A DNA stretch of 64,000 nt, taken from positions 70,673 to 134,672 of the forward strand of contig JACPDI010000031.1 in assembly GCA_016184105.1 (NCBI GenBank), in the 5' to 3' direction. Position numbers and translations under genes: made by a program. The notes beneath the pieces were generated by a model. The model was given only the letters and a program-made list of their open reading frames with translations. It had not been told where the DNA came from and did no database searches. Every line of letters begins with the position of its first letter. Within the stretch, counting starts at the first letter, position 1. This document shows positions 29,670 through 63,312 of this stretch, piece by piece. The stretch comes from Acidobacteriota bacterium. Its GTDB lineage: Bacteria; Acidobacteriota; Vicinamibacteria; Vicinamibacterales; 2-12-FULL-66-21.

Positions 29670-32600
29670 TCAGTGAAAGTCGCGCGCCTCGACATCAGGG
29701 CCGCCGCCGCCGAGACCGTACAACCGCTCAGCTTTAATGGACGTCACTCCTTCCTGGATTTGCAGTGTGCCTTCCACCAGCAGGTAAGCCTCGCCGACCA
29801 CCGAACGCCGCTGCTTGGCGAACAGATCCGGCCGGACGATGATGTTGGCGATGCCCGTTTCGTCTTCAAGCGTGAGAAAGACGAACCCTTTCGCGGTGCC
29901 CGGCCGCTGGCGCGCGATGACGGCGCCCGCGACGCGCACGCGGCGGCCGTGCCGCCCCTGCGGCAGATCGCAGGCGCGCAGCACGCCGCGCAGCGCCAGC
30001 TCCTGGCGCCTGAGCGACATCGGATGCGGCCCGATCGTGAGACCGGTGCCCGCATAGTCCGCCTCGATGCGCTCGGCAAGCGTCATCCGGGCCAGCGGAC
30101 TCGCGTCGGCGGGGTCGGGAACCTGGGACCCGGGATCCGAAAACAGCTCACCCGCCGGCCGCATCGCGCGCTCGATCTGCCACATCGCGGCGCGCCGCTC
30201 GTAACCGAACGCGTTGAGCGCGCCGATGTCAGCCAGCGCGCGCAGCTCGTCGCGATGCACGCCGCTGCGCGCCACGAAGTCGTCCAGGGAGGTGAAGCGC
30301 GAAGGCGGCCGGCTGCACGTGGCACGTCGCACGTCGCACGTGGCACGTGGCACGTGGACCGCCCACTCGTGCGCGCAGACGCTACAGAAGCACGTCGTCC
30401 CCACGCGCTCGATCATCGCTTCGTCGTCCGAACCGCACTTGGGGCAAATGTCACGTGCGACGTGCGACGTGCCACGGTGCGACGTGCGATCGTGCGACGT
30501 GCGATCGTGCGACGTGCGATCGTGCGACGTGCGATCGTGCGGCGGACCGGCCTGCTCGATGGCCTTTCCCGCCTCCGCGCGCAGCCCATTGACGTATCGC
30601 AGCCCGAGGCGCACGCGCCCGTCCTCCTCGATGCTGCAGCCCCACCCCGACACCTGCACGTCGATCGGCGCGAAGCGCACGCCGCGGCGCTGCGCATCCT
30701 TGACGAGCGTGGCCGGCGAGTAGAACCCCATCGGCTGGTTGTTCAGCATCGCGGTGTAGAACGCCGCCGGGTAATGCGCCTTCAGGTAGGCGCTGGCATA
30801 GACGAGCAGCGCGAAGCTCGCGGCGTGCGACTCAGGGAAGCCGTAGAGCGCGAACGACGTGATCGCGCGGATGATCTCCTCCGCCGCGTCGTCACCGATC
30901 CCCTGCTTCGCGATGCCATCGCGCAGCTTCTGTTCGATCACGCGCATCCGCTTCTCCGAGCGCTTGAAGCCGAACGCGCGGCGCAGCTCCTCCGCTTCCC
31001 CTCCCGTGAATCCCGCCGCGACCATCGCCATGCGCAGGAGCTGCTCCTGGAAGAGCGGCACGCCGAGCGTGCGCTCGAGGATCGGCGCGAGCGACGGGTG
31101 CGGGTACACCACCGGCTCCACGCCGCGGCGCCGCTTCAGGTACGGGTGCACCATCTGGCCGACGATCGGACCGGGCCGGATGATCGCCACCTCGACGACG
31201 ATGTCGTAGAAACGCTCGGGCTTCATCCGCGGCAGCGTGGCCATCTGGGCGCGTGACTCCACCTGGAAGATGCCGATCGTGTCCGCCTCCTGCAGCATGC
31301 GGTAGACCGCGGGGTCGTCGGGGGGGAGGTGGACCAAATCCAGAGGGGCCGCAGGCGCTCCTCTGGCCTCTGAATTCACAATCGTCAGCGCATCTTGAAG
31401 CACCGCCATCATCCCCAGTCCAAGCAGGTCAACCTTCACGATCCCCATGTCCGCGCAGTCGTCCTTGTCCCACTGCGCGACGACGCGGCCGGGCATGCTG
31501 GCGTTTTCGAGGGGAACGACTTCATCGAGCCGCCCCTGGCAGACGATCATGCCGCCGGAGTGCTGCCCGAGGTGCCGCGGCAGATCGTGGATGCGCTCCC
31601 ACAGGTGGCCGAACGTGCGCAGCGCCGCGTTGGCGGGATCGAGCCCCGCGTCGCGCAGGTGCCGCTCGAGCGTGTCCTTCGGGTCGATCCACTCGAAGGG
31701 GTTCATCACCTTCGCCAGGCGGTCCACCTCGCCGGGCTCCAGCCCGAGGACCTTGCCGATATCGCGCGCCGCGCTGCGCCCGCGATAGGTGATGACGTTG
31801 GCGGTCATTGCCGCACTCTGCCCTTCGGGGGCCGCACTCTGCCCTTCGGGGGGCGCGCCACGCTTCCCGTAGCGCTCGTAGACGTACTGAATCACTTGCT
31901 CGCGGCGGTCGCCGCTCGGCAGATCGAGATCGATGTCGGGCCACTCGCCGCGCTCCTCGGAAAGAAACCGTTCGAAGAGCAAATCCATCCCGACCGGGTC
32001 CACCGCGGTGATGCCCAGGCTGTAGCAGACCGCGCTGTTGGCCGCCGAGCCGCGCCCCTGCACGAGGATCCCGTGCTGCCGGCAGTAGTTCACGATGTCC
32101 CAGACGATGAGGAAGTACCCGGCGAGATCGAGCTTCTCGACGAGCGACAGCTCGCGCTCGATCTGCGCGCGCGCGCGCGCGTGGTACGGCCGATAGCGCT
32201 CGCGCGCCCCCGCGTCCGTGATCTTCCGCAGGAACGAGCCCATCGTCTCGCCGGCGGGCACGGGGTACTCGGGAAAGCGGTAGCCGAGATCGGCCATCGT
32301 GTACTGCAGGCGGTCCGCCAGATCGCGCGTCGCCGCCACCGCGTGCGGCAGATCGTGGAAGAGCACCGCCATCTGCTCCGGCGACTTGAGGTACCGCTCC
32401 GCGTTCACGCTGAGGCGCCGGCCTGCGCGCGCGATCGTCGTCTTGTGACGGAGGCACGTGAGGACGTCGTACAGCGGGCGATCGGCCGGCTCGGCAAAGC
32501 GCACGCCGTTGGTCGCGATGACGGGGACGTGAAACGCCGAGGCCAGCGACAGCAGCGCGTGGTTGTCCGATTCCTCGTCGCGGCGCAGATGGCGCTGCAG

Positions 32601-33122
32601 CTCGACGTACACGCTGCCGCGCCCGAACATGCCGACGGCGCGGTCGACGAGCCCGCCCACGCCGTGCCGCGGCCCCTGCAGCGCCTCGCGCCCGATGAGC
32701 GCGACGAGCCCCGCCGTGCGGCCGTCGAGCTCCTCGAGGTCGAGCGACCCCTCGCCTTTCGGCGCGCGGAGCTTCATCTGCGTGATCAGGCGGCAGAGAT
32801 TCTTGTAGCCAATGGCGGACTCGACGAGGACCGGGAGACGCCAGAGGGAGAAAAAGGGGTCGGGAGCCTTTTTCGAGGCGTCAACGGCGAAAAAGGCTCC
32901 CGACCCCTTTTTCTCCCTGATCGTGATCTCCGCGCCGACAATCGCGCGCAGCCCCGCTTTCTTCGCCGCCAGGTGAAATCGCGGCGCGCCGTAGAAGCCG
33001 TCTCGATCGACGAGGGCGAGCGCCGGATAGCCGAGCGCCGCCGCGCGGTCGACGAGCGCTTCGGGCAGCGAGGCGCCGTCGAGGAATGAAAAGGCCGAAG
33101 CGGAATGGAGTTCGATATACAC
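29670..33122 (-). CDS. dnaE2: Error-prone DNA polymerase III alpha subunit DnaE2 (ImuC), with several in-frame insertions
   Basis: GTG start, then MYIELHSASAFSFLDGAS PHP domain. Pol III alpha core motifs run throughout and a C-terminal OB region is present. Sits downstream of imuA-imuB. Confidence 0.9.
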   Translation of the reverse strand: MYIELHSASAFSFLDGASLPEALVDRAAALGYPALALVDRDGFYGAPRFHLAAKKAGLRAIVGAEITIREKKGSGAFFAVDASKKAPDPFFSLWRLPVLVESAIGYKNLCRLITQMKLRAPKGEGSLDLEELDGRTAGLVALIGREALQGPRHGVGGLVDRAVGMFGRGSVYVELQRHLRRDEESDNHALLSLASAFHVPVIATNGVRFAEPADRPLYDVLTCLRHKTTIARAGRRLSVNAERYLKSPEQMAVLFHDLPHAVAATRDLADRLQYTMADLGYRFPEYPVPAGETMGSFLRKITDAGARERYRPYHARARAQIERELSLVEKLDLAGYFLIVWDIVNYCRQHGILVQGRGSAANSAVCYSLGITAVDPVGMDLLFERFLSEERGEWPDIDLDLPSGDRREQVIQYVYERYGKRGAPPEGQSAAPEGQSAAMTANVITYRGRSAARDIGKVLGLEPGEVDRLAKVMNPFEWIDPKDTLERHLRDAGLDPANAALRTFGHLWERIHDLPRHLGQHSGGMIVCQGRLDEVVPLENASMPGRVVAQWDKDDCADMGIVKVDLLGLGMMAVLQDALTIVNSEARGAPAAPLDLVHLPPDDPAVYRMLQEADTIGIFQVESRAQMATLPRMKPERFYDIVVEVAIIRPGPIVGQMVHPYLKRRRGVEPVVYPHPSLAPILERTLGVPLFQEQLLRMAMVAAGFTGGEAEELRRAFGFKRSEKRMRVIEQKLRDGIAKQGIGDDAAEEIIRAITSFALYGFPESHAASFALLVYASAYLKAHYPAAFYTAMLNNQPMGFYSPATLVKDAQRRGVRFAPIDVQVSGWGCSIEEDGRVRLGLRYVNGLRAEAGKAIEQAGPPHDRTSHDRTSHDRTSHDRTSHRGTSHVARDICPKCGSDDEAMIERVGTTCFCSVCAHEWAVHVPRATCDVRRATCSRPPSRFTSLDDFVARSGVHRDELRALADIGALNAFGYERRAAMWQIERAMRPAGELFSDPGSQVPDPADASPLARMTLAERIEADYAGTGLTIGPHPMSLRRQELALRGVLRACDLPQGRHGRRVRVAGAVIARQRPGTAKGFVFLTLEDETGIANIIVRPDLFAKQRRSVVGEAYLLVEGTLQIQEGVTSIKAERLYGLGGGGPDVEARDFH
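30315..30356 (+). repeat. Heptamer tandem array (GCACGTS x6) inside dnaE2
   Basis: gcacgtg gcacgtc gcacgtc gcacgtg gcacgtg gcacgtg, 42 nt. On the coding strand it translates as VHVPRATCDVRRATC. Confidence 0.9.
30452..30540 (+). repeat. Inverted-orientation heptamer / 15-mer tandem array (SACGTGC units; gacgtgcgatcgtgc x4) inside dnaE2
   Basis: cacgtgc gacgtgc gacgtgc cacggtgc, then four copies of gacgtgc-gatcgtgc. Encodes (HDRTS)x4. The units are the reverse complement of those at 30315-30356. Confidence 0.9.
31810..31851 (+). repeat. Perfect 21-bp tandem duplication inside dnaE2
   Basis: gccgcactctgcccttcgggg x2, encoding PEGQSAA-PEGQSAA. Confidence 0.9.
32846..32917 (+). repeat. 72-nt perfect palindromic element inserted in frame in dnaE2
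   Basis: 28-nt arms gggagaaaaaggggtcgggagccttttt / aaaaaggctcccgacccctttttctccc around a 16-nt loop. 24 codons (EKKGSGAFFAVDASKKAPDPFFSL). Confidence 0.9.
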
Positions 33123-33191
33123 GAAGGTTCACACGAAGGTTCACACGAAGGTTCACGCGAAGGCTCACGCGAAGGCTCGCACGAAGGTTCG
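33120..33191 (+). repeat. 12-bp tandem array x6 abutting the dnaE2 start codon (imuB-dnaE2 spacer)
   Basis: cacgaaggttca x3, cgcgaaggctca, cgcgaaggctcg, cacgaaggttcg. On the coding strand the units read TGAACCTTCGTG, and the last GTG is the dnaE2 start. Confidence 0.9.
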
Positions 33192-33248
33192 ACCGCGCGC
33201 TCTGAATCCTCGCCGGAACCACCGTTCGAACCCTCGTGAGAACCTTCG

Positions 33249-34721
33249 TCAGTCCAGAATCCCCTCTACAAACCACCTGTCCTCGTGACGATCGCGGCAG
33301 ATCCGGTAGGCCGCGCCGTCGGCGAGCGTTACGTCGTATTCATCGCGGTCCCAGCAGGCGCCGGGGTCGCGGCCGCTCCACCAGCCGCCGGACGATCGCC
33401 ACGGCCCGGCGCACTGCTCCACCGCGCCGCCGCGGATGCCAATCCGATCCGTGGTCACGCGCGCCACCCGCTCGCCCTCGAGCGCCACGCGCGCGACAAC
33501 GGGGATGCGAAAGCGTCGCAGAACAGGTCTCGCCTTCGCGCTTCGCGCTTCGGCGCAGCTGGCGCCCCTGTTCGCGCTTCGCGCTTCGGCGGGCGCGAAC
33601 GGCGCGAGCGTGAACGCGTCCGGCGCGTGCGAGTCGAGGAGCACCGGCGAGCCCACGCGTCCCTCTCCCATCAGCGCCGTCAGCCTCGACACCACCGTCG
33701 CGATCGTTTCGGGCTGCGTCCCGGCGCGCTCGAGCAGCGAGAACTGGACGATGCGTCCCGGGGCCGGCTCGAGCCGGACGGCGATACGATCGATGCCCGC
33801 CGGCGGCGGATGGGACTCGAGATCGAGCAGGATGAGCGTGCGCAGCACGCGCGCCTCGCGCATCGGCGCGGGCAGCTCGATGCGCCGCACGTGCGTCTCG
33901 CGCGTCTTCGTCCCGTCCGCATCCACGCGGGCGGTCACGAGCGTGAGCGTCGTCTCGAGAACGGCTGCGCCGCGATCGGCGCGCTCGAGCGCGGCGCTCA
34001 ACGGATCGAGCAGCCGCGTGAGCACGAACGACACCGGCTGCAGCGCGTCGAGCGGCCACTCGAGATCGAAGGACGCCTCGAAGCGCGCCTCGTCGAGGAC
34101 CGGCACGAGCGGCTGCGTGTCGAGGCCGCGCGCGAACCGCTGCAGCACGACGCCGGCCTGGCCGAGCCGCGCCGCCAGATCGGCCGCGGGCAGCGCCGCG
34201 AGATCGCCGAGCGTGACCAGCCCCCATCGGCGCAGCGTGGCAAGCTCGGTGCACGCGCCGCCCGGCTCGCCGCAACGGCCGGGCGCGCCGGCCAGGCGGC
34301 ACAACGCGCAGGCGCGAACAAGGGGCCGGGAGCCTTTTTTCTGCAGCCGCGGCGGTAAAAAGGCTCCCGGCCCCTTGTTCGCCGCCAGCGTGTCGAACAC
34401 CTCCAGCGACAGCGCGCCCACGGCGGCCGCGGTCCTCCCCGGCAGGACGACGCTGTACGGCTGCGCGATGGCGAGCAGGAGGGCCGCCGTGCGGGAGGGC
34501 GCGACCGCCACCGACACGGTCACGTGCGGCGTGCGACGTGCGGCGTGCGACAGTTCTTCCGCGATCGCCGCGGCATCGCCAACGATGCGCGTGAGGCCGG
34601 CGGTGTCGATGAGCACCAGCCGCCCGCCGAGCTGCGGCTCGACGCGCGGCGAACACGCCTGTGCCGCGGCAAGCAGCGCAGCGGCATCCTTACTGTCCGG
34701 GCTGAACAGTGCGGCGAACAC
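33249..34721 (-). CDS. imuB: ImuB, Y-family-polymerase-like mutasome subunit
   Basis: Position between imuA and dnaE2, and VFAALFSP...LVLIDTAGLTRIVG N-terminus. I propose the GTG at 34721, preceded by GGAGG-containing repeats. The ORF-track start at 34829 lies inside imuA. Confidence 0.75.
   Translation of the reverse strand: MFAALFSPDSKDAAALLAAAQACSPRVEPQLGGRLVLIDTAGLTRIVGDAAAIAEELSHAARRTPHVTVSVAVAPSRTAALLLAIAQPYSVVLPGRTAAAVGALSLEVFDTLAANKGPGAFLPPRLQKKGSRPLVRACALCRLAGAPGRCGEPGGACTELATLRRWGLVTLGDLAALPAADLAARLGQAGVVLQRFARGLDTQPLVPVLDEARFEASFDLEWPLDALQPVSFVLTRLLDPLSAALERADRGAAVLETTLTLVTARVDADGTKTRETHVRRIELPAPMREARVLRTLILLDLESHPPPAGIDRIAVRLEPAPGRIVQFSLLERAGTQPETIATVVSRLTALMGEGRVGSPVLLDSHAPDAFTLAPFAPAEARSANRGASCAEARSAKARPVLRRFRIPVVARVALEGERVARVTTDRIGIRGGAVEQCAGPWRSSGGWWSGRDPGACWDRDEYDVTLADGAAYRICRDRHEDRWFVEGILD
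33535..33606 (+). repeat. Imperfect 36-nt tandem duplication inside imuB
   Basis: ttcgcgcttcgcgcttcggcg occurs at 33535-33555 and at 33571-33591. Encodes the AEARSA...AEARSA repeat. Confidence 0.75.
34314..34382 (+). repeat. 69-nt perfect palindromic element inserted in frame in imuB (same family as 32846-32917)
   Basis: 26-nt arms gcgaacaaggggccgggagccttttt / aaaaaggctcccggccccttgttcgc around a 17-nt loop. 23 codons (ANKGPGAFLPPRLQKKGSRPLVR). Confidence 0.9.
34521..34548 (+). repeat. Heptamer array (cacgtgc ggcgtgc gacgtgc ggcgtgc) inside imuB
   Basis: Same SRCGTGC unit family and orientation as 30452-30540. Confidence 0.8.
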
Positions 34722-35493
34722 TCCCCGAACCTCCGTGCGCACCTCCGTGCGAACCTCCGTGCGAAGCCCGCCCCAGCACGCGCGCCTGCGGCGCAATCCC
34801 GTCGAACAGCCGCGCGCGCGCCGACGCACCGCGCCACCGGGGCGCGGCGGCGCCGCCGAGCACGATCGTCACGCCCCCCGCGCTGCGGCCGGCGCGCTCG
34901 GGCGCGACGAGCAGCGCGGCGGTGGATCCCCCTTCGATCAGCCGCGCCAGGCGAAGCCAGGTCGTGAACGGCAGCCGCCGCAGGACGGGCGGCGGCACGT
35001 CGGCGAGATCGCAGACCGCGAGGCCGAAGGCGCGCGACTCCAGCACGACGGTGAACGCCTTGAGCGCGCGCTCCACTGCACGCCAAAGCGATGAGGTGTT
35101 TCCCGGCGCCGCGTGCCCGCTCGCGCGGATCGCCTCGACGCTGGCCGCCACGCCGCGCACCCACAACAGGTTCCCGAGCTGCACCCCCGTGGCCGCCGCC
35201 GACTCCACATCGAACCGATCCAGCGCGTCCACCAGCGCCGCCGCCCCGCCGGCCGCGGTCGCCGACGCAAGCGCGGCACACATGAGCGTGGTCCGCCCGG
35301 TGGAGCGCGCTCCCGCAATCTCCGACAGCTCACCCCGCGGCAATCCACCGCCAAGCCGCGCGTCGATCTCGGCATGGCCGAGCGGCAGCAGCGGCCGCCC
35401 GGCGTCGAGCGCCGGGCGCAGGTGCGTCAGCGTGGCGTCGAGCTTTTTCGCGCGAAGCAGCGATTCGAGGTGGGCGCGGGCCGCGGCAGCCAT
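34690..35493 (-). CDS. imuA: ImuA, RecA/SulA-like mutasome subunit
   Basis: LPLGHAEIDARLGGGLPRGELSEIAGARSTGRTTL Walker-like segment. First gene of the cassette. ATG at 35493. Confidence 0.75.
   Translation of the reverse strand: MAAAARAHLESLLRAKKLDATLTHLRPALDAGRPLLPLGHAEIDARLGGGLPRGELSEIAGARSTGRTTLMCAALASATAAGGAAALVDALDRFDVESAAATGVQLGNLLWVRGVAASVEAIRASGHAAPGNTSSLWRAVERALKAFTVVLESRAFGLAVCDLADVPPPVLRRLPFTTWLRLARLIEGGSTAALLVAPERAGRSAGGVTIVLGGAAAPRWRGASARARLFDGIAPQARVLGRASHGGSHGGAHGGSGSVRRTVQPGQ
34727..34762 (+). repeat. 12-bp tandem array x3 at the imuA 3' end / imuB start
   Basis: gaacctccgtgc gcacctccgtgc gaacctccgtgc. The coding strand reads GCACGGAGGTTC, so each unit contains GGAGG. Encodes (SHGG)x3 at the ImuA C-terminus. 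The unit resembles the reverse complement of the 33120-33191 unit. Confidence 0.85.
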
Positions 35494-35538
35494 GGTGTCC
35501 GGTCGAGGTGTTTCGCTTTTATTTCGCCTGCCGGACGC

Positions 35539-35568
35539 AGTATAAACCACCCAGCGACGCTGGGGCAA
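35539..35568 (-). promoter_or_regulatory. Candidate sigma70-type promoter of imuA with a palindrome in the spacer
   Basis: The minus strand reads TTGCCC-N18-TATACT. The spacer contains the inverted repeat CCAGCG-t-CGCTGG (35551-35563). The -10 lies about 46 nt upstream of the imuA ATG. Confidence 0.3.
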
Positions 35569-35578
35569 CATCGCCGCG

Positions 35579-35630
35579 GAACACGCAGAACACGCGGAAA
35601 AATACGGGATCCTGCGTGTTCAGCGCGTTC
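35579..35630. promoter_or_regulatory. Inverted repeat with GAAC/GTTC tetrads in the imuA / MFS divergent region (candidate operator)
   Basis: GAACACGCAGAAC ... 26 nt ... GTTCAGCGCGTTC. The inner arms GAACACGCAG / CTGCGTGTTC are perfectly complementary over 10 nt. Confidence 0.35.
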
Positions 35631-35655
35631 CGCGGCGCAGCCCTCTCCTGCTAAG

Positions 35656-47254: not shown

Positions 47255-47716
47255 GTGCATGCACGACACGCGTGTTACTATTTCGTGGTGTCCCCACACA
47301 GCAAGCCGCCGGTCACCGCGCGCCACCTGATTGACGCGGCCAAGGCGCTTGGGCACCCGGCGCGCCTGCGGATCCTCGCGATGCTGCAGGGGCGCACGCT
47401 CTGCGTGTGCCAGATGACGTCCGTCCTCCAGCTCGCCCCCTCCACGGTCTCGGGTCACCTCAACGAGCTGCGGCGCAGCGGGCTCGTGCTCGAGGACAAG
47501 CAGGGAAAGCTGGTGTTCTACCGGCGCAACGCCTCGAGCCCCTTTGCCGCCGTTGTCGCGAACGCGCTCGCCCTCGTCGCCGGCGATGAGGCGATCGTCG
47601 CCGATCGGGCCGTCATCGACCGCGTCCGCACCATCCCGATCGAGGTGCTGACACGGGCCGGGCTGGACCTCGAAACGGCCGGCATCCGCCGCCCGCGGGC
47701 GCGCGCCGCGATCTGA
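47255..47716 (+). CDS. ArsR/SmtB-family transcriptional regulator with CVC motif
   Basis: LGHPARLRILAMLQGRTLCVCQMTSVLQLAPSTVSGHLNELRRSGLV is the HTH, with LCVC at the position of the ELCVCDL As(III) site. The true start may be a GTG at 47285/47288. Confidence 0.8.
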   Translation: MHARHACYYFVVSPHSKPPVTARHLIDAAKALGHPARLRILAMLQGRTLCVCQMTSVLQLAPSTVSGHLNELRRSGLVLEDKQGKLVFYRRNASSPFAAVVANALALVAGDEAIVADRAVIDRVRTIPIEVLTRAGLDLETAGIRRPRARAAI

Positions 47717-47773
47717 TCCCGATAACCATTCGTAATATCCCGAACTGATGTCCTCACGATCGGGTGCCTCAAA

Positions 47774-47845
47774 TTTGAAATAGTAAAAGTGGAATTGAAA
47801 AAGGCACGAAGGAAGAAGTTCAAGGGTGGGAAGTTAAATTGGGGC
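47774..47845 (+). repeat. Cassette repeat copy A (AT-rich, inverted relative to copies B and C)
   Basis: Contains gaaatagtaaaagtg, aaaaggcacgaaggaa and gggaagttaaattgg. The reverse complements of these recur at 47854-47939 and 48399-48470. Confidence 0.7.
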
Positions 47846-47853
47846 TCGCGCGC

Positions 47854-47939
47854 CCAACCTGCTTTTACCGCTTTTAGGCTTAAAGTTCGTGCCCTTCTCG
47901 CTTCACGTTTTACTATTTTCCTTTCTTCCGTCTTCTCCT
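47854..47939 (-). repeat. Cassette repeat copy B (forms an imperfect ~150-nt palindrome with copy A; overlaps the 3' end of the four-helix-bundle gene)
   Basis: ttcgtgcccttctcgcttcacgttttactattttcctttcttccgtc. It is a direct repeat of copy C (shared ttcgtgcc.tt and cttcttccgtc). Confidence 0.6.
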
Positions 47940-48332
47940 ATTCGCCGTCTTGAGTGAGGCGACGAAGATCGCCACCAGCTCCGACGATTCCCTGCGCAGC
48001 CACTCCAGCGAATCATCTTGCAGGCCGATGTCGGCCAGGACTTCAAGCCAGTGCTGGCACTCGTCGGCTTCTTCGCGAACCGTCCCGAGCTTCGCAGTGA
48101 ATTCATCGCAAGAACGCCCGCACCGCGCTGCGCGATAGTTGGAGGCCACGCCGTCGGCCGCACGCCGGAGCTGGTCGCCGATGTCCTGGTACTCCGCCGA
48201 CTGCGGCAACCGCCGCCACAGGGCGATCACCTGCAGCGAAAACTGCTTCGTGCGCTGGCGCAGATCCTCTGAACGCATGCCGCCGCTGCTGTGCACGGCG
48301 AATGCCAGCCGAAATATCCCGGATGTCGGCAT
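47913..48332 (-). CDS. Four-helix-bundle protein (23S rRNA intervening-sequence protein family)
   Basis: TKQFSLQVIALWRRLP...IGDQLRRAADGVASNYRAA...EFTAKLGTVREEADECQHWLEVL fits the family pattern. Confidence 0.8.
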   Translation of the reverse strand: MPTSGIFRLAFAVHSSGGMRSEDLRQRTKQFSLQVIALWRRLPQSAEYQDIGDQLRRAADGVASNYRAARCGRSCDEFTAKLGTVREEADECQHWLEVLADIGLQDDSLEWLRRESSELVAIFVASLKTANRRRRKKGK

Positions 48333-48398
48333 GCGTCGCGACGCAACCGGCCGAATTCTACGGTGTAGACCGCCCGTCGAAGACGCACATTCCGCGTA

Positions 48399-48470
48399 CC
48401 AACTTAACTTTCAACTTCCCCCCTTTTTCCTTCGTGCCTTTTGACTTCTTCCGTCAACTGTTTTCCTTTG
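48399..48470 (-). repeat. Cassette repeat copy C (upstream of the four-helix-bundle gene)
   Basis: ccaacttaactttcaacttccccccttttccttcgtgccttttgacttcttccgtc. A 16/16 core, ttccttcgtgcctttt, is the reverse complement of the copy A core. Confidence 0.7.
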
Positions 48471-48560
48471 ATCGGGCTCTTTCCCTCCCGATCTCGGTAA
48501 TCCGCCCGATACCCCCGCGCGCTCCAGGGACCTACATTGGTAGTGTCAATGGAGGCGGTC

Positions 48561-60228: not shown

Positions 60229-60256
60229 ACAGCCCGACCGCGGGATAGAATGGTCC

Positions 60257-60427
60257 GATGGCTCCGGGTGAAGTGTGCGTGTACTGCCGACGCCGCCCGG
60301 TGGCGCCCGAATGGAAGCCGTTCTGCAGCCAGCGCTGCCGGATGGCGGATCTCGGCCGCTGGCTCTCACAGGACTACCGCGTGGCGGGCGACACGTCGCC
60401 CCCCGAATCTGACGACGACGATGCCTG
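60257..60427 (+). CDS. yacG: DNA gyrase inhibitor YacG (zinc finger), 56 aa, absent from the supplied ORF track
   Basis: My own translation is MAPGEVCVYCRRRPVAPEWKPFCSQRCRMADLGRWLSQDYRVAGD.... It has the CxxC...PFCSxRCxxxDLGxW signature. The TGA at 60425-60427 overlaps the gltA ATG at 60421. Confidence 0.7.
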
Positions 60428-61713
60428 ATACTCTGACAATTACCGACAACCGTACCGGCAAGCAGTACGAAATCCCGATCCAGGACGACACAATCAAGGC
60501 CATGGATCTGCGGCAGATCAAGGTCAAGCCCGACGACTTCGGCATGATGACCTACGACCCCGCCTTCCAGAACACGGCCGCGTGCCGCAGCCGGATCACG
60601 TACATCGACGGCGACAAGGGGGTGCTGCTCTACCGCGGCTACCCGATCGAGCAGCTCGCCGAACACAGCGACTTCCTCGAAACCGCGTACCTGCTCCTCT
60701 TCGGCGAGCTGCCGACGGCGGCGCAGATGCAGGCGTGGATCAAGGAGGTCACCCTCCACACGATGGTCCACGAGAACATCAAGAAGTTGATGGAGGCGTA
60801 CCAGTATGACGCACACCCGATGGGGATCTTCCTGAGCACGGTGGGCGCCTTCTCGACCTTCTACCCGGACGCCAAGCAGATCTTCAACCCCGAGGCGCGC
60901 CGCCGGCAGATCGTGCGGCTCGTCGCCAAGGTGCCGACGATTGCGGCCTACGCGTTTCGCCACAGCATCGGTCGCCCGTACGTGTACCCGGACAACGACC
61001 TGAGCTACACGGGCAACTTCCTGAACATGCTGTTCAAGATGACCGAGCTGAAGTACCAGTCGCACCCCGTGCTGGAGCGCGCGCTCGACGTCCTCTTCAT
61101 CCTCCACGCAGACCACGAGCAGAACTGCAGCACGAGCGCGATGCGCGGCATCGGCAGCTCGCACGCCGATCCGTACTCGTCGATGGCGGGCGCCGCCGCC
61201 GCGCTGTACGGCCCGCTGCACGGGGGCGCGAACGAGGCCGTGCTGCGCATGCTGCACGAGATCGGATCGCTCTCGAACGTGCCGGCATTCATCAAGAAGG
61301 TGAAGGCGGGCGAAGGGCGGCTGATGGGATTCGGCCACCGGGTGTACAAGTCGTACGACCCGCGCGCCAAGATCATCAAGAAGATCGCCGACCTCGTGTT
61401 CGCCGTGACGGGGCGCAACCCGCTGCTCGACATCGCCCTCGAGCTGGAGCGCATCGCGCTCGAGGACGAGTACTTCGTCAACCGGAAGCTGTACCCGAAC
61501 GTCGACTTCTACTCGGGCCTCATCTACCAGGCGATGAAATTCCCGGTCGAGATGTTCCCGGTGCTCTTCGCGATCCCGCGCGCGGCGGGCTGGATGGCGC
61601 AGTGGGAAGAGATGATCCTGGACCAGGACCAGAAGATCGCGCGCCCGCGGCAGATCTACGTCGGGAGCGCGAAGCGGGATTACGTGCCGAGGGACAAGCG
61701 GAAGGAAGTCTGA
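60421..61713 (+). CDS. gltA: Citrate synthase (type II)
   Basis: MPDTLTITDNRTGKQYEIPI..., plus HADHEQNCSTS and GFGHRVYK active-site motifs. Confidence 0.95.
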   Translation: MPDTLTITDNRTGKQYEIPIQDDTIKAMDLRQIKVKPDDFGMMTYDPAFQNTAACRSRITYIDGDKGVLLYRGYPIEQLAEHSDFLETAYLLLFGELPTAAQMQAWIKEVTLHTMVHENIKKLMEAYQYDAHPMGIFLSTVGAFSTFYPDAKQIFNPEARRRQIVRLVAKVPTIAAYAFRHSIGRPYVYPDNDLSYTGNFLNMLFKMTELKYQSHPVLERALDVLFILHADHEQNCSTSAMRGIGSSHADPYSSMAGAAAALYGPLHGGANEAVLRMLHEIGSLSNVPAFIKKVKAGEGRLMGFGHRVYKSYDPRAKIIKKIADLVFAVTGRNPLLDIALELERIALEDEYFVNRKLYPNVDFYSGLIYQAMKFPVEMFPVLFAIPRAAGWMAQWEEMILDQDQKIARPRQIYVGSAKRDYVPRDKRKEV

Positions 61714-61717
61714 GCGA

Positions 61718-61778
61718 AAGGGGGACAGTCACACTTTCCTCGGCAGGGCCAGGAAAGTGTGACTGTCCCCCTTTTTTC
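61718..61778 (+). terminator. Rho-independent terminator between convergent gltA and the LeuA-like gene
   Basis: Perfect 22-bp stem (aagggggacagtcacactttcc / ggaaagtgtgactgtccccctt), a 12-nt loop, and a T6 run at 61772-61777. Confidence 0.85.
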
Positions 61779-62987
61779 TCAACTGCCGATTTCGTCGAGG
61801 ATTTCCGCCTCGCTCAGCACCGTCGCCGACCGCTTCGCGCGGGCGAAGATGCGATCCACCAGCTCGTCGCCCGCGGGCAGGCCGCGTCTTTCCAGCCAGT
61901 AGATCACGTTCGATCGGCCTGACATCGGTCCGACCTCGATCTCCTGCTCGCGCCCGATCAACCGCGCGGGCACCGAGGAGTAGACCGCGTCGGCGAGCTC
62001 CCGGTCGTTCTTGCGGAACGCCTTGACGACCGCCGCGGCGTGGACGCCGGTCGCCGTGCGAAACGCGTCCCGGCCGAGCACCGGGTAGTTCGGCGGCAGC
62101 GGCACACGGCAGGCGTCGGACACCAGACGGGCATACTCGGGCAGCGGCGTGAGATCGCGGTTCAGGTATCCCATCAGCACCAGGTTGACGAGCAGCAGAT
62201 CCATCGGCGTGTTGCCCACGCGCTCGCCGATGCCGATGGCCGTTCCGTGCAGCCGCGTGGCGCCCGCCTCGTACGCCGCGATCGTCGAGATCACGCCCAG
62301 GTCGCGGTCGCGGTGGCCGTGCCAGTCGATGCCGATCTGATCGCCCCCGCTCTCCTTGATCACCTCCGCGATGAACCGCACAACGGCGCGCGCGCCCGCC
62401 GGCGTCGCATGCCCGACGGTATCCGCCACGCACAGGCGGCTCGCGCCGGCGCGGAGGGCCGTGGAATAGAGCTTGCGGATGCTGTCCGGGTCCGCCCGCG
62501 TCGTGTCCTCGGTGACGTACATGACCGGCAGCCCTTCGCGCACCGCGAACGTGATGGCGTCCTCCGTCCACCGCTGCAGCTCGTCGATCGTCCAGCCCTC
62601 CGCGTACTGGCGGATGGGACTCGACCCGATGAACGCGCAGCACTCGATCGGGATGCCGACGCGCTGCGAGATCTCCGCGATCGGCCGTATGTCGGCAATG
62701 ACCGTCCGCGCGGCGCAGTTCGGCCTGATGTTGAGCCCCGCGTCCGCGATCTCGCGCGCGAGCAGCTCCACGTCTCGGACCACGTGCGGCCCGGCGCCCG
62801 GCAGCCCGATGTCGGCCGTGTCGATCCGGAGCGCCTCCATGAGATGGAGGATGCGGATCTTGTCCTCGATCGCGGGCGCGCAGACCGACGGGGACTGGAG
62901 CCCGTCGCGCAGCGTCTCGTCGTCCAGCATCGGCGCGTGCGCCGGCGCCTCGCCGCGCTGGTTCCAGTCGAAGATGAGCGGGTGCAT
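61779..62987 (-). CDS. HMGL-like 2-isopropylmalate/homocitrate synthase family protein (short form, no LeuA regulatory domain)
   Basis: LDDETLRDGLQSP and HGHRDRDLG (HxH metal site). Confidence 0.8.
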   Translation of the reverse strand: MHPLIFDWNQRGEAPAHAPMLDDETLRDGLQSPSVCAPAIEDKIRILHLMEALRIDTADIGLPGAGPHVVRDVELLAREIADAGLNIRPNCAARTVIADIRPIAEISQRVGIPIECCAFIGSSPIRQYAEGWTIDELQRWTEDAITFAVREGLPVMYVTEDTTRADPDSIRKLYSTALRAGASRLCVADTVGHATPAGARAVVRFIAEVIKESGGDQIGIDWHGHRDRDLGVISTIAAYEAGATRLHGTAIGIGERVGNTPMDLLLVNLVLMGYLNRDLTPLPEYARLVSDACRVPLPPNYPVLGRDAFRTATGVHAAAVVKAFRKNDRELADAVYSSVPARLIGREQEIEVGPMSGRSNVIYWLERRGLPAGDELVDRIFARAKRSATVLSEAEILDEIGS

Positions 62988-62988
62988 G

Positions 62989-63312
62989 TCAGTGCCCGGC
63001 GGGACTCCGCGGCCGTGACAGGCGGAGGACCGTCACCGCCCCGGCGCCGCCGACGAGCAGCGCCCACAGTGACGCGGTGACCGCCGCGTCGCGCACGGTC
63101 TGGTCCATGATCTCGTGCATGGTGACGCGCGGTCCGCGTCCCAGCTCGTGGTCCGCCTGCCGGTACAGATACTCCTTCACGCCGCGGGTGACGAGAATAT
63201 CGAACACGCCGTTCCACACGACCGCCGACACGAGGAGCCACACGCCAAGCCAGGGCCACAGGCGAAATGCCGGGCGCCACAAACGCGATGCCTGCGGGCT
63301 CTTACCCGTCAT
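62989..63312 (-). CDS. Small hypothetical membrane protein
   Basis: The ATG at 63312 overlaps the upstream gene by 11 nt. Two hydrophobic segments (WPWLGVWLLVSAVVW, ASLWALLVGGAGAV). Confidence 0.4.
   Translation of the reverse strand: MTGKSPQASRLWRPAFRLWPWLGVWLLVSAVVWNGVFDILVTRGVKEYLYRQADHELGRGPRVTMHEIMDQTVRDAAVTASLWALLVGGAGAVTVLRLSRPRSPAGH

Follow-up and report, generated by a model that had tools for sequence, protein, structure and literature searches.

The imuA-imuB-dnaE2 mutasome operon of an Acidobacteriota bacterium (2-12-FULL-66-21) was studied in a 64-kb stretch of DNA, here called the window (GCA_016184105.1, JACPDI010000031.1, positions 70,673-134,672). All coordinates below are window positions. 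In about a third of bacteria, the ImuA-ImuB-DnaE2 mutasome drives mutation after DNA damage and the evolution of resistance. The operon was a local outlier for tandem and inverted repeats, and the excess recurred at conserved positions across a large set of related loci. It is tentatively proposed that these repeats are dispersed heptanucleotide and hairpin-forming simple sequence repeats (SSRs), which turn over by slippage and template switching and are filtered by selection at permissive sites. The heptamer/hairpin class of repeat is already known. What appears to be new is that, across a phylum, such repeats are concentrated at conserved sites of the mutasome operon; a full-text literature of 8.3 million texts yielded no report that connects heptamer or hairpin repeats with imuA, imuB, dnaE2 or Acidobacteria.

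The first-pass annotation, made from the letters alone, had described the operon as a hot spot of short repeats in the window. This was borne out within the 64 kb and, independently, across 80 related loci. Tandem arrays were called by Tandem Repeats Finder (TRF) and palindromes by an inverted-repeat finder. The operon, 9.2% of the window, contained seven of the eight arrays with a TRF score of at least 60 (binomial p=4e-7), all five arrays with a score of at least 70 (binomial p=7e-6), and five of the six longest inverted repeats. Bases within arrays made up 6.3% of the operon and 0.9% of the rest of the window. When array scores were summed over non-overlapping 5.9-kb blocks, the operon reached 618 and the other blocks 0-189. 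Codon-shuffled versions of the operon yielded 0.07 arrays with a score of at least 60 per shuffle.

The comparison set consisted of 80 species-representative acidobacterial loci, each taken as the operon with ±6-kb flanks, and TRF was run on all of them. Many of these loci are metagenome-assembled genomes (MAGs), and related species are non-independent samples. The TRF thresholds are arbitrary; the enrichment held at scores of 40, 50 and 60. In the operon, arrays with a period of 7, 14, 21 or 28 reached 8-12 times their density in the flanks. At a score of at least 50, their density was 0.300 per kb in the operon and 0.025 per kb in the flanks (132 vs 16 arrays, p=3e-34). Arrays with a period of 8, 15 or 16 were enriched 3-5 fold, and the remaining periods 1.4-fold, which was not significant in the 80 loci. 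In a paired per-locus test, the operon was favoured in 46 loci and the flanks in 5 (p=2e-9). At least one period-7-type array was present in the operon in 52 of the 80 loci, and at least three in 38. Hairpins overall were 2.5-fold enriched in the operon, compared with about 12-fold for the 7-mer arrays.

Among about 240 arrays with a score of at least 50, 81 had a period of 7 and 52 a period of 14. Arrays inside imuB and dnaE2 were mostly of these two periods, so units of 3n length do not predominate in genes. In the window itself, three of nine structures are heptamer-based, and the remainder have 12-, 15- and 21-nt units. Eight of 30 arrays counted as flanking sit within 350 nt of the operon. 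When repeat-containing flank open reading frames (ORFs) were scanned against Pfam, two of ten had a recognisable domain and eight had no match. Most loci with an insert-free DnaE2 (about 1000-1040 aa) have no arrays, and DnaE2 length correlated with array number (rho 0.57). No 7-mer arrays were found in six imuABC/dnaE2 control loci (Burkholderia, Ralstonia, Sinorhizobium, Variovorax and a Nitrospirota plasmid). The repeats had been judged unusual for this conserved cassette, and the comparison of related genomes bears this out as a property of the operon throughout the phylum.

Genes and repeats of the operon

The three genes are co-oriented in the order imuA, imuB, dnaE2 on the minus strand (35493-29670), and this order and its synteny are common to relatives:

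34690-35493, minus: imuA, a RecA-fold protein, first gene
33249-34721, minus: imuB, putatively a diverged, inactive Y-family-like protein, with a likely GTG start at 34721
29670-33122, minus: dnaE2, error-prone Pol III alpha paralogue, 1150 aa

DnaE2 matched the NCBIfam model NF004225 'error-prone DNA polymerase' with 1210 bits (cut-off 939) over aa 2-1150. Its Pfam domains are PHP, DNA_pol3_alpha, finger, HHH_6 (split) and OB, and it exceeds insert-free orthologues by about 110-130 aa. ImuA matched PF00154 RecA with 43.9 bits (cut-off 27), and the ImuA and ImuA' models matched below their cut-offs. ImuB gave no Pfam match and sub-threshold DinB-type matches only (E 4e-7 to 1e-4); its assignment is backed by position and by orthology to the middle gene of the operon in over 60 loci.

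The following repeats were found in the operon and its leader:

30315-30357, minus: heptamer array GCACGTS x6.1, TRF score 72, on the C-terminal side of a zinc-ribbon-like insert of DnaE2; unit not 3n
about 30449-30541, minus: heptamer array x12 (equivalently 15-mer x6), score 150, encoding (HDRTS)n on the N-terminal side of that insert
31810-31856, minus: exact 21-bp tandem duplication APPEGQSAAPEGQSA, DnaE2 aa 423-437
32845-32918, minus: palindromic in-frame insertion with 31-nt perfect arms in the DnaE2 PHP domain, aa ~69-93, KKGSGAFFAVDASKKAPDPFF
33119-33190, minus: 12-mer array C x6, score 109, antisense-type units at the dnaE2 start
33203-33249, minus: array B, degenerate sense 12-mers at the imuB-dnaE2 junction, pairing with array C
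33535-33591, minus: exact 21-nt segment at 36-nt spacing (33535-33555 and 33571-33591) in imuB, aa ~377-397, encoding AEARSA...AEARSA, with internal TTCGCGC 7-mers
34314-34382, minus: palindromic in-frame insertion in imuB with 34-nt arms, 91% complementary, ImuB aa ~113-136
34522-34551, minus: 14-mer x2.1 array of the heptamer family (ACGTGCG/GCGTGCG) in imuB, score 60, ImuB aa ~57-67; unit not 3n
34726-34765, minus: 12-mer array A, sense unit CACGGAGGUUCG x3.3, score 73, encoding the C-terminal SHGG repeats of ImuA
35572-35637, minus: hairpin upstream of the imuA -35 box, made of 9-nt tandem units, its 24-nt arms being 92% complementary

Nine repeat structures had been counted in about 5.9 kb by the first-pass annotation. 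Eight of these stood as described, and the ninth, given as a 36-nt duplication, was so only in part, since the exact copy is a 21-nt segment repeated at a spacing of 36 nt. The leader hairpin at 35572-35637 is a tenth structure, just outside the interval first considered, and is specific to the window relative to loci L202, L204 and L205. All of the intragenic repeats leave the three ORFs open and in frame.

Several of the repeats are related to each other. The two heptamer arrays of dnaE2 are inverted copies over 28 nt with 96% complementarity, one on either side of the zinc-ribbon-like insert, a relation that had been missed before. The arrays at 33119-33190 and 34726-34765 consist of related 12-mers in inverted orientation, and the three arrays A, B and C form one 12-mer family. 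A GGAGG motif occurs in every unit of array A, closely preceding the imuB GTG start. The two palindromes belong to one element family. The window has four occurrences of their shared core AAAAAGGCTCCCGRCCCC, all of them in the operon; 0.05 were expected. The family has only its two copies in the 64 kb, and related and metagenomic loci totalling 1.78 Mb yielded no further copy. In both palindromes, A5 and U5 tracts bound a GC stem. Their RNA folds had energies of -64.2 kcal/mol (z -10) for 32845-32918 and -66.5 kcal/mol (z -8.6) for 34314-34382. A terminator consensus scan did not call them, their loops being longer than 8 nt and their stems longer than 20 bp.

Two putative control elements were recognised in the imuA leader:

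35568-35539, minus: promoter-like -35/-10 of imuA, TTGCCC-18-TATACT, from a promoter scan
35528-35510, minus: direct repeat GGCGAAATAAAAGCGAAAC (CGAA-N7-CGAA), downstream of the -10 box and upstream of the imuA start; four syntenic relatives conserve it

The true imuA start is probably the ATG at 35493 rather than the ATG at 35571. The GGCGAAATAAAAGCGAAAC repeat is also present in the imuA leaders of L202, L204 and L205. The alphaproteobacterial SOS box has the form GAAC-N7-GAAC, and because its architecture is similar, GGCGAAATAAAAGCGAAAC is a candidate LexA/SOS operator of this lineage. lexA adjoins imuA in four Pyrinomonadaceae loci and also in a Manganitrophus control. The closest genomes are Acidobacteriota of the class Vicinamibacteria, and genus-level relatives share the neighbourhood MFS / imuA-imuB-dnaE2 / hypothetical / MgtC-DUF4956 / PLD / metallophosphatase. 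No known RNA family (Rfam) or tRNA was found in the window.

Two further features lie elsewhere in the window. An inverted repeat with perfect 24-nt arms around a 10-nt loop occupies 61717-61774, between the convergent ORFs 60229-61713 (plus) and 61779-63032 (minus). It is the sole strong hairpin of the window outside the operon and is probably a bidirectional terminator. At 47700-48500, an AT-richer cassette, with a GC content of 0.49-0.54 either side of a small minus-strand ORF (~47950-48280), is bounded by the inverted repeats aaaggcacgaaggaagaagttcaaggg ... ccccctttttccttcgtgcctttt and looks like a separate inserted element.

Insertion sites, turnover and constraint

The positions of the repeats were compared among orthologues. 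In an alignment of 68 DnaE2 sequences, insertion hot spots followed core columns 75 (47 of 68 sequences), 566, 810, 841, 875 and 903. The inserts after column 75, in the PHP domain, were unrelated to the palindrome of the window. On the proteins of the window, arrays clustered at DnaE2 aa 60-100, 580-600 and 820-1020 and at ImuB aa 120-160, 260-280 and 380-400. Related loci also had 31 arrays at the imuA-imuB junction, 29 at the imuB-dnaE2 junction and 13 in the leader upstream of imuA. The same hot-spot positions were used across three classes, and seven of the nine window repeats occupy recurrent positions. The strongest ImuB hot spot is the site of the 21-nt repeat at 33535-33591, where 17 arrays were found in related loci. 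The array at 34522-34551 is not at a recurrent hot spot (one array nearby among the other loci), and the site of the 21-bp duplication was used in two of 68 orthologues and is variable among genus-level relatives.

The inserts are typically hairpins with arms of tandem 7-8-mers, and the unit sequences are lineage-specific. A common binding motif in the units, such as a LexA half-site, was considered and rejected: the 206 heptamer arrays were diverse, and no 4-mer occurred in more than 18% of them. Within an operon the units are shared. In 27 of 39 loci one unit was present at two or more distant sites of its operon, and sharing was 22% within loci compared with 3.8% between loci.

One hot spot holds an insert that is not a repeat:

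30363-30446, minus: four-Cys zinc-ribbon-like insert CPKCG[CS][DE]D..M[IL]E...C[FY]CNxCxHxW, DnaE2 aa 893-920, in the HhH/beta-binding domain

The insert gave sub-threshold matches only to Pfam zinc ribbons. The vicinamibacterial orthologues that were examined have it; those of other Acidobacteriota and of other phyla lack it. At the column-841 hot spot of Vicinamibacteria, a conserved zinc ribbon stands between variable repeat-encoded linkers. Its position, right in a repeat hot spot, suggests that a domain was captured where insertions readily occur.

Recurring insert peptides were observed at DnaE2 hot spots 810 and 875 in Terriglobia loci (L025, L028, L038, L041, L061, L045, L076 and others). 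They include PQRHRDTEK...SVSLCLRGE, from CACAGAGA/TCTCTGTG hairpins, and FVIPTPERKRGAEESR, and the same element is often found at two dnaE2 sites. These inserts look like genome-wide families of palindromic elements read in frame.

Turnover at the hot spots was examined at several distances. In genus-level relatives (80-88% aa identity), the DnaE2 core was conserved with many invariant columns, and hot-spot sequences and lengths were unrelated. The closest relative, L206, has ACGTGCG-family arrays around the zinc ribbon, at the site of 30315-30357. Its junction hairpin is made of 13-mers, not 12-mers, and it has neither copy of the 21-bp duplication and no palindrome. Among sequence pairs of 96-99.9% identity, taken from 90%-identity clusters, five of six real indels were in hot spots and all were in frame. 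No length variation was found in three 90%-identity clusters with 3-10 full-length members.

Two close pairs differed in copy number. The imuB genes of L201 (1641-1961) and L202 (3633-3722) carry a 9-mer, GCACCCCAG, encoding GTP/GTL repeats, in about 36 and 10 copies, respectively. These loci are 99.4-99.8% identical and differ by 25 copies; a 14-copy heptamer array lies alongside, and the site is that of the 21-nt repeat of the window. The difference may be real variation of the variable-number tandem repeat kind or short-read collapse. In DnaE2, the 99.9% identical P0068 and P0136 differ by a tandem duplication of 45 aa (135 nt) in the hot spot at aa 570-590. The duplication copies part of the conserved flank (MMAVLQDALEVVN) and a palindrome-like insert, GAPAA..EGESSSPEA..GGGAP. 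A similar insert occurs in P0086, and a remnant, EARGAPAA, in the window.

The ratio of nonsynonymous to synonymous divergence (dN/dS) was 0.75-0.78 in hot-spot codons and 0.14-0.15 in the DnaE2 core for two close pairs, and 0.30 and 0.04, respectively, for a distant pair. The low core values and high hot-spot values show that the DnaE2 enzyme is maintained and that the insert peptides are near neutral.

Junction hairpins and RNA-level regulation

Arrays B and C form a hairpin that the first-pass annotation had missed:

33121-33249, minus: imuB-dnaE2 intercistronic hairpin of arrays B and C, whose stem base joins the imuB UGA to the dnaE2 GUG

The fold had an energy of -74.1 kcal/mol (z -7.5) with 17 bridging pairs. 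The dnaE2 GUG of the window is without a Shine-Dalgarno (SD) sequence, as start codons at such junctions usually are, and the array ends exactly at the dnaE2 start codon in the window and in many loci. The imuB-dnaE2 gap was -2 to +7 nt in several array-free loci and 40-400 nt in array-rich loci. It was 0-15 nt in five of six out-of-phylum controls, and the sixth (Variovorax) has no adjacent imuB. When 45 junction spacers were folded, the median z was -4.2; 69% had z below -3, and 71% had a stem bridging the stop and start codons. The imuB-dnaE2 hairpins are compatible with a role in translational coupling. Array C could also pair with the distant array A (-72 kcal/mol) as strongly as with the local array B (-65 kcal/mol). 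Array A lies at the imuA/imuB junction, 1.5 kb upstream, and this pairing would loop out the whole imuB cistron.

These observations raise the alternative that the repeats are selected for regulation at the RNA level. The junction hairpin would sequester the SD-less dnaE2 start, leaving DnaE2 synthesis solely to ribosomes that terminate on imuB, and the terminator-like palindromes and the intragenic hairpins would serve as attenuators of transcription or translation or as entry sites for RNase. The bridging of stop and start in most of the 45 spacers argues for this, the more so as the spacer sequences are unrelated between lineages. So do the arrays that end at SD-less starts, the GC stems of the palindromes with their A5/U5 tracts, and the potential pairing of array A with array C. 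Elsewhere, a role in translational regulation has been proposed for heptamer arrays that adjoin start codons (PMC4679880).

The composition of the stems points the other way. In 166 hairpins from 81 operons (the window and L001-L080), sense-strand stem mismatches were A.C in 113 cases and G.U in 63. A.C-richer hairpins outnumbered G.U-richer ones by 56 to 30 (p=0.007), and the corresponding loci by 29 to 16 (p=0.07). This comparison gave no sign of selection on mRNA hairpins, its direction being opposite to the one that such selection predicts. With A.C exceeding G.U on the sense strand, it is the antisense or template strand that would fold better. The A.C excess may come from mutation bias or from structure that matters on the template DNA strand. 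Moreover, only 40-50% of the inserts at the main intragenic hot spots fold strongly, the hairpin enrichment is just 2.5-fold, and the palindromes were neither called by the terminator scan nor matched in Rfam. Selected RNA-level regulation is considered rather unlikely. An earlier suggestion that the repeats are regulatory or phase-variable devices gained no support from the mismatch counts, from the share of strongly folding inserts or from the exclusively in-frame indels between near-identical strains.

Origin of the repeats and related systems

The explanation favoured here, tentatively, is that of dispersed SSRs under turnover and selective filtering. The repeats would belong to an SSR class scattered through many Acidobacteriota genomes, elsewhere mostly outside genes and often before start codons. 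In the operon they would occupy fixed insertion-tolerant points, namely the leader, the two intercistronic junctions and in ImuB and DnaE2, a few loops and domain boundaries. From the anatomy of the arrays, replication slippage would expand and contract the units, and template switching or gene conversion would make inverted copies and spread a unit to other sites of the operon. Turnover would be fast, sister lineages having unrelated sequences at one position. Selection would act only as a filter. Inside genes, in-frame, stop-free versions alone persist, with nearly neutral peptides next to a constrained enzyme core. At the junction, repeats would persist as hairpins, whose base reunites the imuB stop and the dnaE2 start and presumably keeps translation coupled. 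Hairpin inserts would be tolerated there because the proximity required for termination-reinitiation is restored. The repeats would then be mostly tolerated passengers, occasionally exapted, as with the zinc ribbon in one hot spot. On the best reading they are not the footprint of a mutasome copying its own gene.

This explanation accounts for the period of the arrays, the diversity of units and the hairpins made of tandem units. It also accounts for the neutrality of the peptides, the generic distribution of the unit family and the absence of arrays in repeat-free clades. The distribution was examined by a metagenome scan for (CACGTS)3, which returned at least 120 loci. Among the matches listed, 0 of 120 arrays were in a mutasome gene, and most were non-coding or at the 5' ends of unrelated genes (AFOR, GlgE, XerC, MurC). 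An operon-specific origin of the window's heptamer family was rejected on this ground. One listed metagenomic locus has an imuA match; its array is 2.2 kb upstream of imuA, on the wrong side. In the window, all copies of the heptamer family are within the operon. In L166, one of these metagenomic loci, an array (2733-2780) lies in frame in the linker between the UvrD-like helicase and PD-(D/E)XK nuclease domains of a DNA-repair protein.

Several points weigh against the explanation by filtered SSRs. Tolerance alone does not explain the size of the excess (about 200 intragenic arrays in 80 genomes, with flanks of ~600 kb), nor does it explain why non-3n units, a hallmark of contingency loci, dominate in genes, where tolerance would favour 3n units. 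Local spread accounts better than genome-wide seeding for a palindrome family that is confined to the operon. DnaE2 proteins of repeat-free clades have no long linkers at the hot spots, so the hot spots are not obviously pre-existing disordered regions. The placement of hot spots rests on Pfam domain boundaries, as the AlphaFold model of DnaE2 was unusable (mean pLDDT 37.5, shallow alignment), and the background consists of the ±6-kb flanks and one 64-kb window. Finally, frame breaks of dnaE2 coincide with arrays in five of 80 assemblies (L010, L013, L014, L048 and L078), which are nanopore MAGs whose breaks are inseparable from assembly error.

The non-3n units and the frame breaks recall a contingency switch, in which one-unit slippage of a heptamer in imuB or dnaE2 toggles inducible mutagenesis and second-order selection maintains the arrays. 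Units of 7, 8 and 14 nt dominate the coding sequence, several independent arrays are present per operon, and the frame changes in the five assemblies fall exactly at arrays. Split dnaE2 ORFs on long contigs start right after hot spots (P0151, P0186), and the imuB 9-mer array differs by 25 units at 99.4% identity. Against this, dnaE2 was intact in 72 of 80 loci, most array frame breaks were in nanopore MAGs, and close clusters had either no length variation or in-frame indels only. The longest arrays of the window have 12- and 15-nt units and are frame-neutral, and the 9-mer difference may be a short-read collapse. Frameshifted relatives were considered as proof of phase variation and rejected: L201, the one broken gene that could be set beside an intact twin (L202), is broken by 1-nt homopolymer indels of the kind that also litter its flanks, which are long-read sequencing errors. 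A contingency switch is considered unlikely.

A cause in the mutasome itself is judged slightly less probable again. The mutasome, produced co-transcriptionally in the SOS response, or gap filling at the strongly induced operon, would preferentially resynthesise its own locus and leave products of slippage and template switching. The enrichment is specific to the operon, conserved across classes and otherwise unexplained; units spread between the sites of one operon, and the palindrome family is confined to it. Contact between polymerase and DNA has been put forward as the source of a 7-nt step (Mrazek 2007, as relayed in PMC4679880). Synonymous divergence (dS) between close relatives, however, was 0.097 in imuA, 0.093 in imuB and 0.057 in dnaE2, compared with a median of 0.156 in 17 syntenic neighbours, and a second pair agreed. 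Base substitutions are the known signature of the mutasome. A raised local mutation rate was therefore rejected, dS not being above that of neighbouring genes in imuA, imuB or the dnaE2 core. In addition, the imuABC loci of other phyla and of array-free Acidobacteriota have no arrays, and the heptamer family is common in metagenomes. The adjacent lexA genes also have none, which is weak evidence (n=4, ~1 expected). A cis effect specific to slippage is kept as a minority reading, as are regulatory hairpins and a slippage switch of mutability. The earlier idea that the operon's own activity or its SOS-time expression promotes slippage gained no support from the operon dS (0.06-0.10 vs 0.156), the generic heptamer family or the array-free state of other imuABC loci.

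It is very unlikely that the inserts are selected as flexible linkers, that is, that long spacers at domain boundaries are needed, that SSR expansion is their quickest source and that length rather than sequence is selected. The use of the same positions in three classes, near-neutral peptides, the zinc ribbon at one hot spot and the correlation of DnaE2 length with array number agree with it. Insert length per site, however, ranged from 0 to about 95 aa among orthologues and differed between close relatives, insert-free clades keep the operon, and the intergenic and leader arrays and the symmetry of the hairpins would go unexplained. An assembly or sequencing artefact is hardly credible: many loci are MAGs, some of them nanopore assemblies with evident indel errors, but the repeats keep the reading frame, independent Illumina and long-read assemblies have them at orthologous sites, and the closest relative shares them with variation.

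The operon repeats were compared with known repeat systems. Heptanucleotide long SSRs (LSSRs) are known in other phyla (Mrazek 2007, as relayed in PMC4679880). LSSRs (Mrazek, Guo & Shah 2007) and the cyanobacterial short tandemly repeated repetitive sequences (STRRs) resemble the operon repeats in a dominant 7-nt unit, many unit sequences, a patchy distribution across lineages, mostly non-coding positions and a presumed slippage origin. The operon differs in its ~12-fold concentration in one conserved locus, in mostly coding positions that are orthologous in three classes, and in inverted pairs that form hairpins. No report of a locus preference of LSSR/STRR-type repeats was found in the literature. 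The TAACTGA repeats of Beggiatoaceae, cyanobacteria and Bacteroidetes (MacGregor 2015, PMC4679880) likewise end a few nucleotides from SD-less starts and are occasionally in frame at protein termini or linkers. They consist of one heptamer used genome-wide without functional gene bias, whereas the operon has diverse units, hairpins and a single location. In some Terriglobia loci, GAACTGA units lie directly upstream of dnaE2.

Rickettsia palindromic elements (RPE) are reportedly inserted in frame into genes. The window palindromes (32845-32918 and 34314-34382) resemble RPE or miniature inverted-repeat transposable elements, being 65-75 nt long, in frame at permissive positions and translated. 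RPE are of high copy number and in many genes, whereas the window family has two copies, both in the operon, and the inserts of the phylum are mostly 7-8-mer arrays rather than elements of fixed consensus. The 6-bp repeat of mutL in Salmonella and Pseudomonas is a repeat-mediated mutability switch. The operon shares with such SSR contingency loci short repeats in mutation-rate genes with non-3n units (30315-30357, 34522-34551), whose slippage by one unit would turn the gene off. It differs in that its strain variation is in frame, its arrays are impure (87-96% matches) and its product is an inducible translesion mutasome, not mismatch repair. Repetitive extragenic palindromes (REP/REPIN) likewise form strong hairpins, have a consensus specific to the lineage and lie between genes that are convergent or co-transcribed; the operon repeats differ in being mostly intragenic, in their tandem-unit arms and in their low copy number per consensus. 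The loci showed no RAYT gene, and neither the examined ORFs of the window nor the annotated relatives showed a transposase.

The mutasome genes themselves are the strongest local hot spot of slippage repeats across a major soil phylum. The operon is a natural system for the origin and maintenance of heptanucleotide repeats, whose origin and 7-nt step lack an explanation. The hairpins that bridge stop and start are a tractable model of translational coupling that survives large insertions, and the hot spots map insertion-tolerant points of DnaE2 and ImuB for protein engineering and evolution. It is considered rather unlikely that the operon carries self-renewing, frameshift-prone arrays and hairpins because of its own function, either as a reversible mutagenesis switch or as a slippage and template-switch signature of DnaE2 acting preferentially on the DNA that expresses it. 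If this were true, the operon would report naturally on mutasome activity or add a new level of control over evolvability, and a phase-variable mutasome or cis-acting mutagenesis would bear on the evolution of evolvability.

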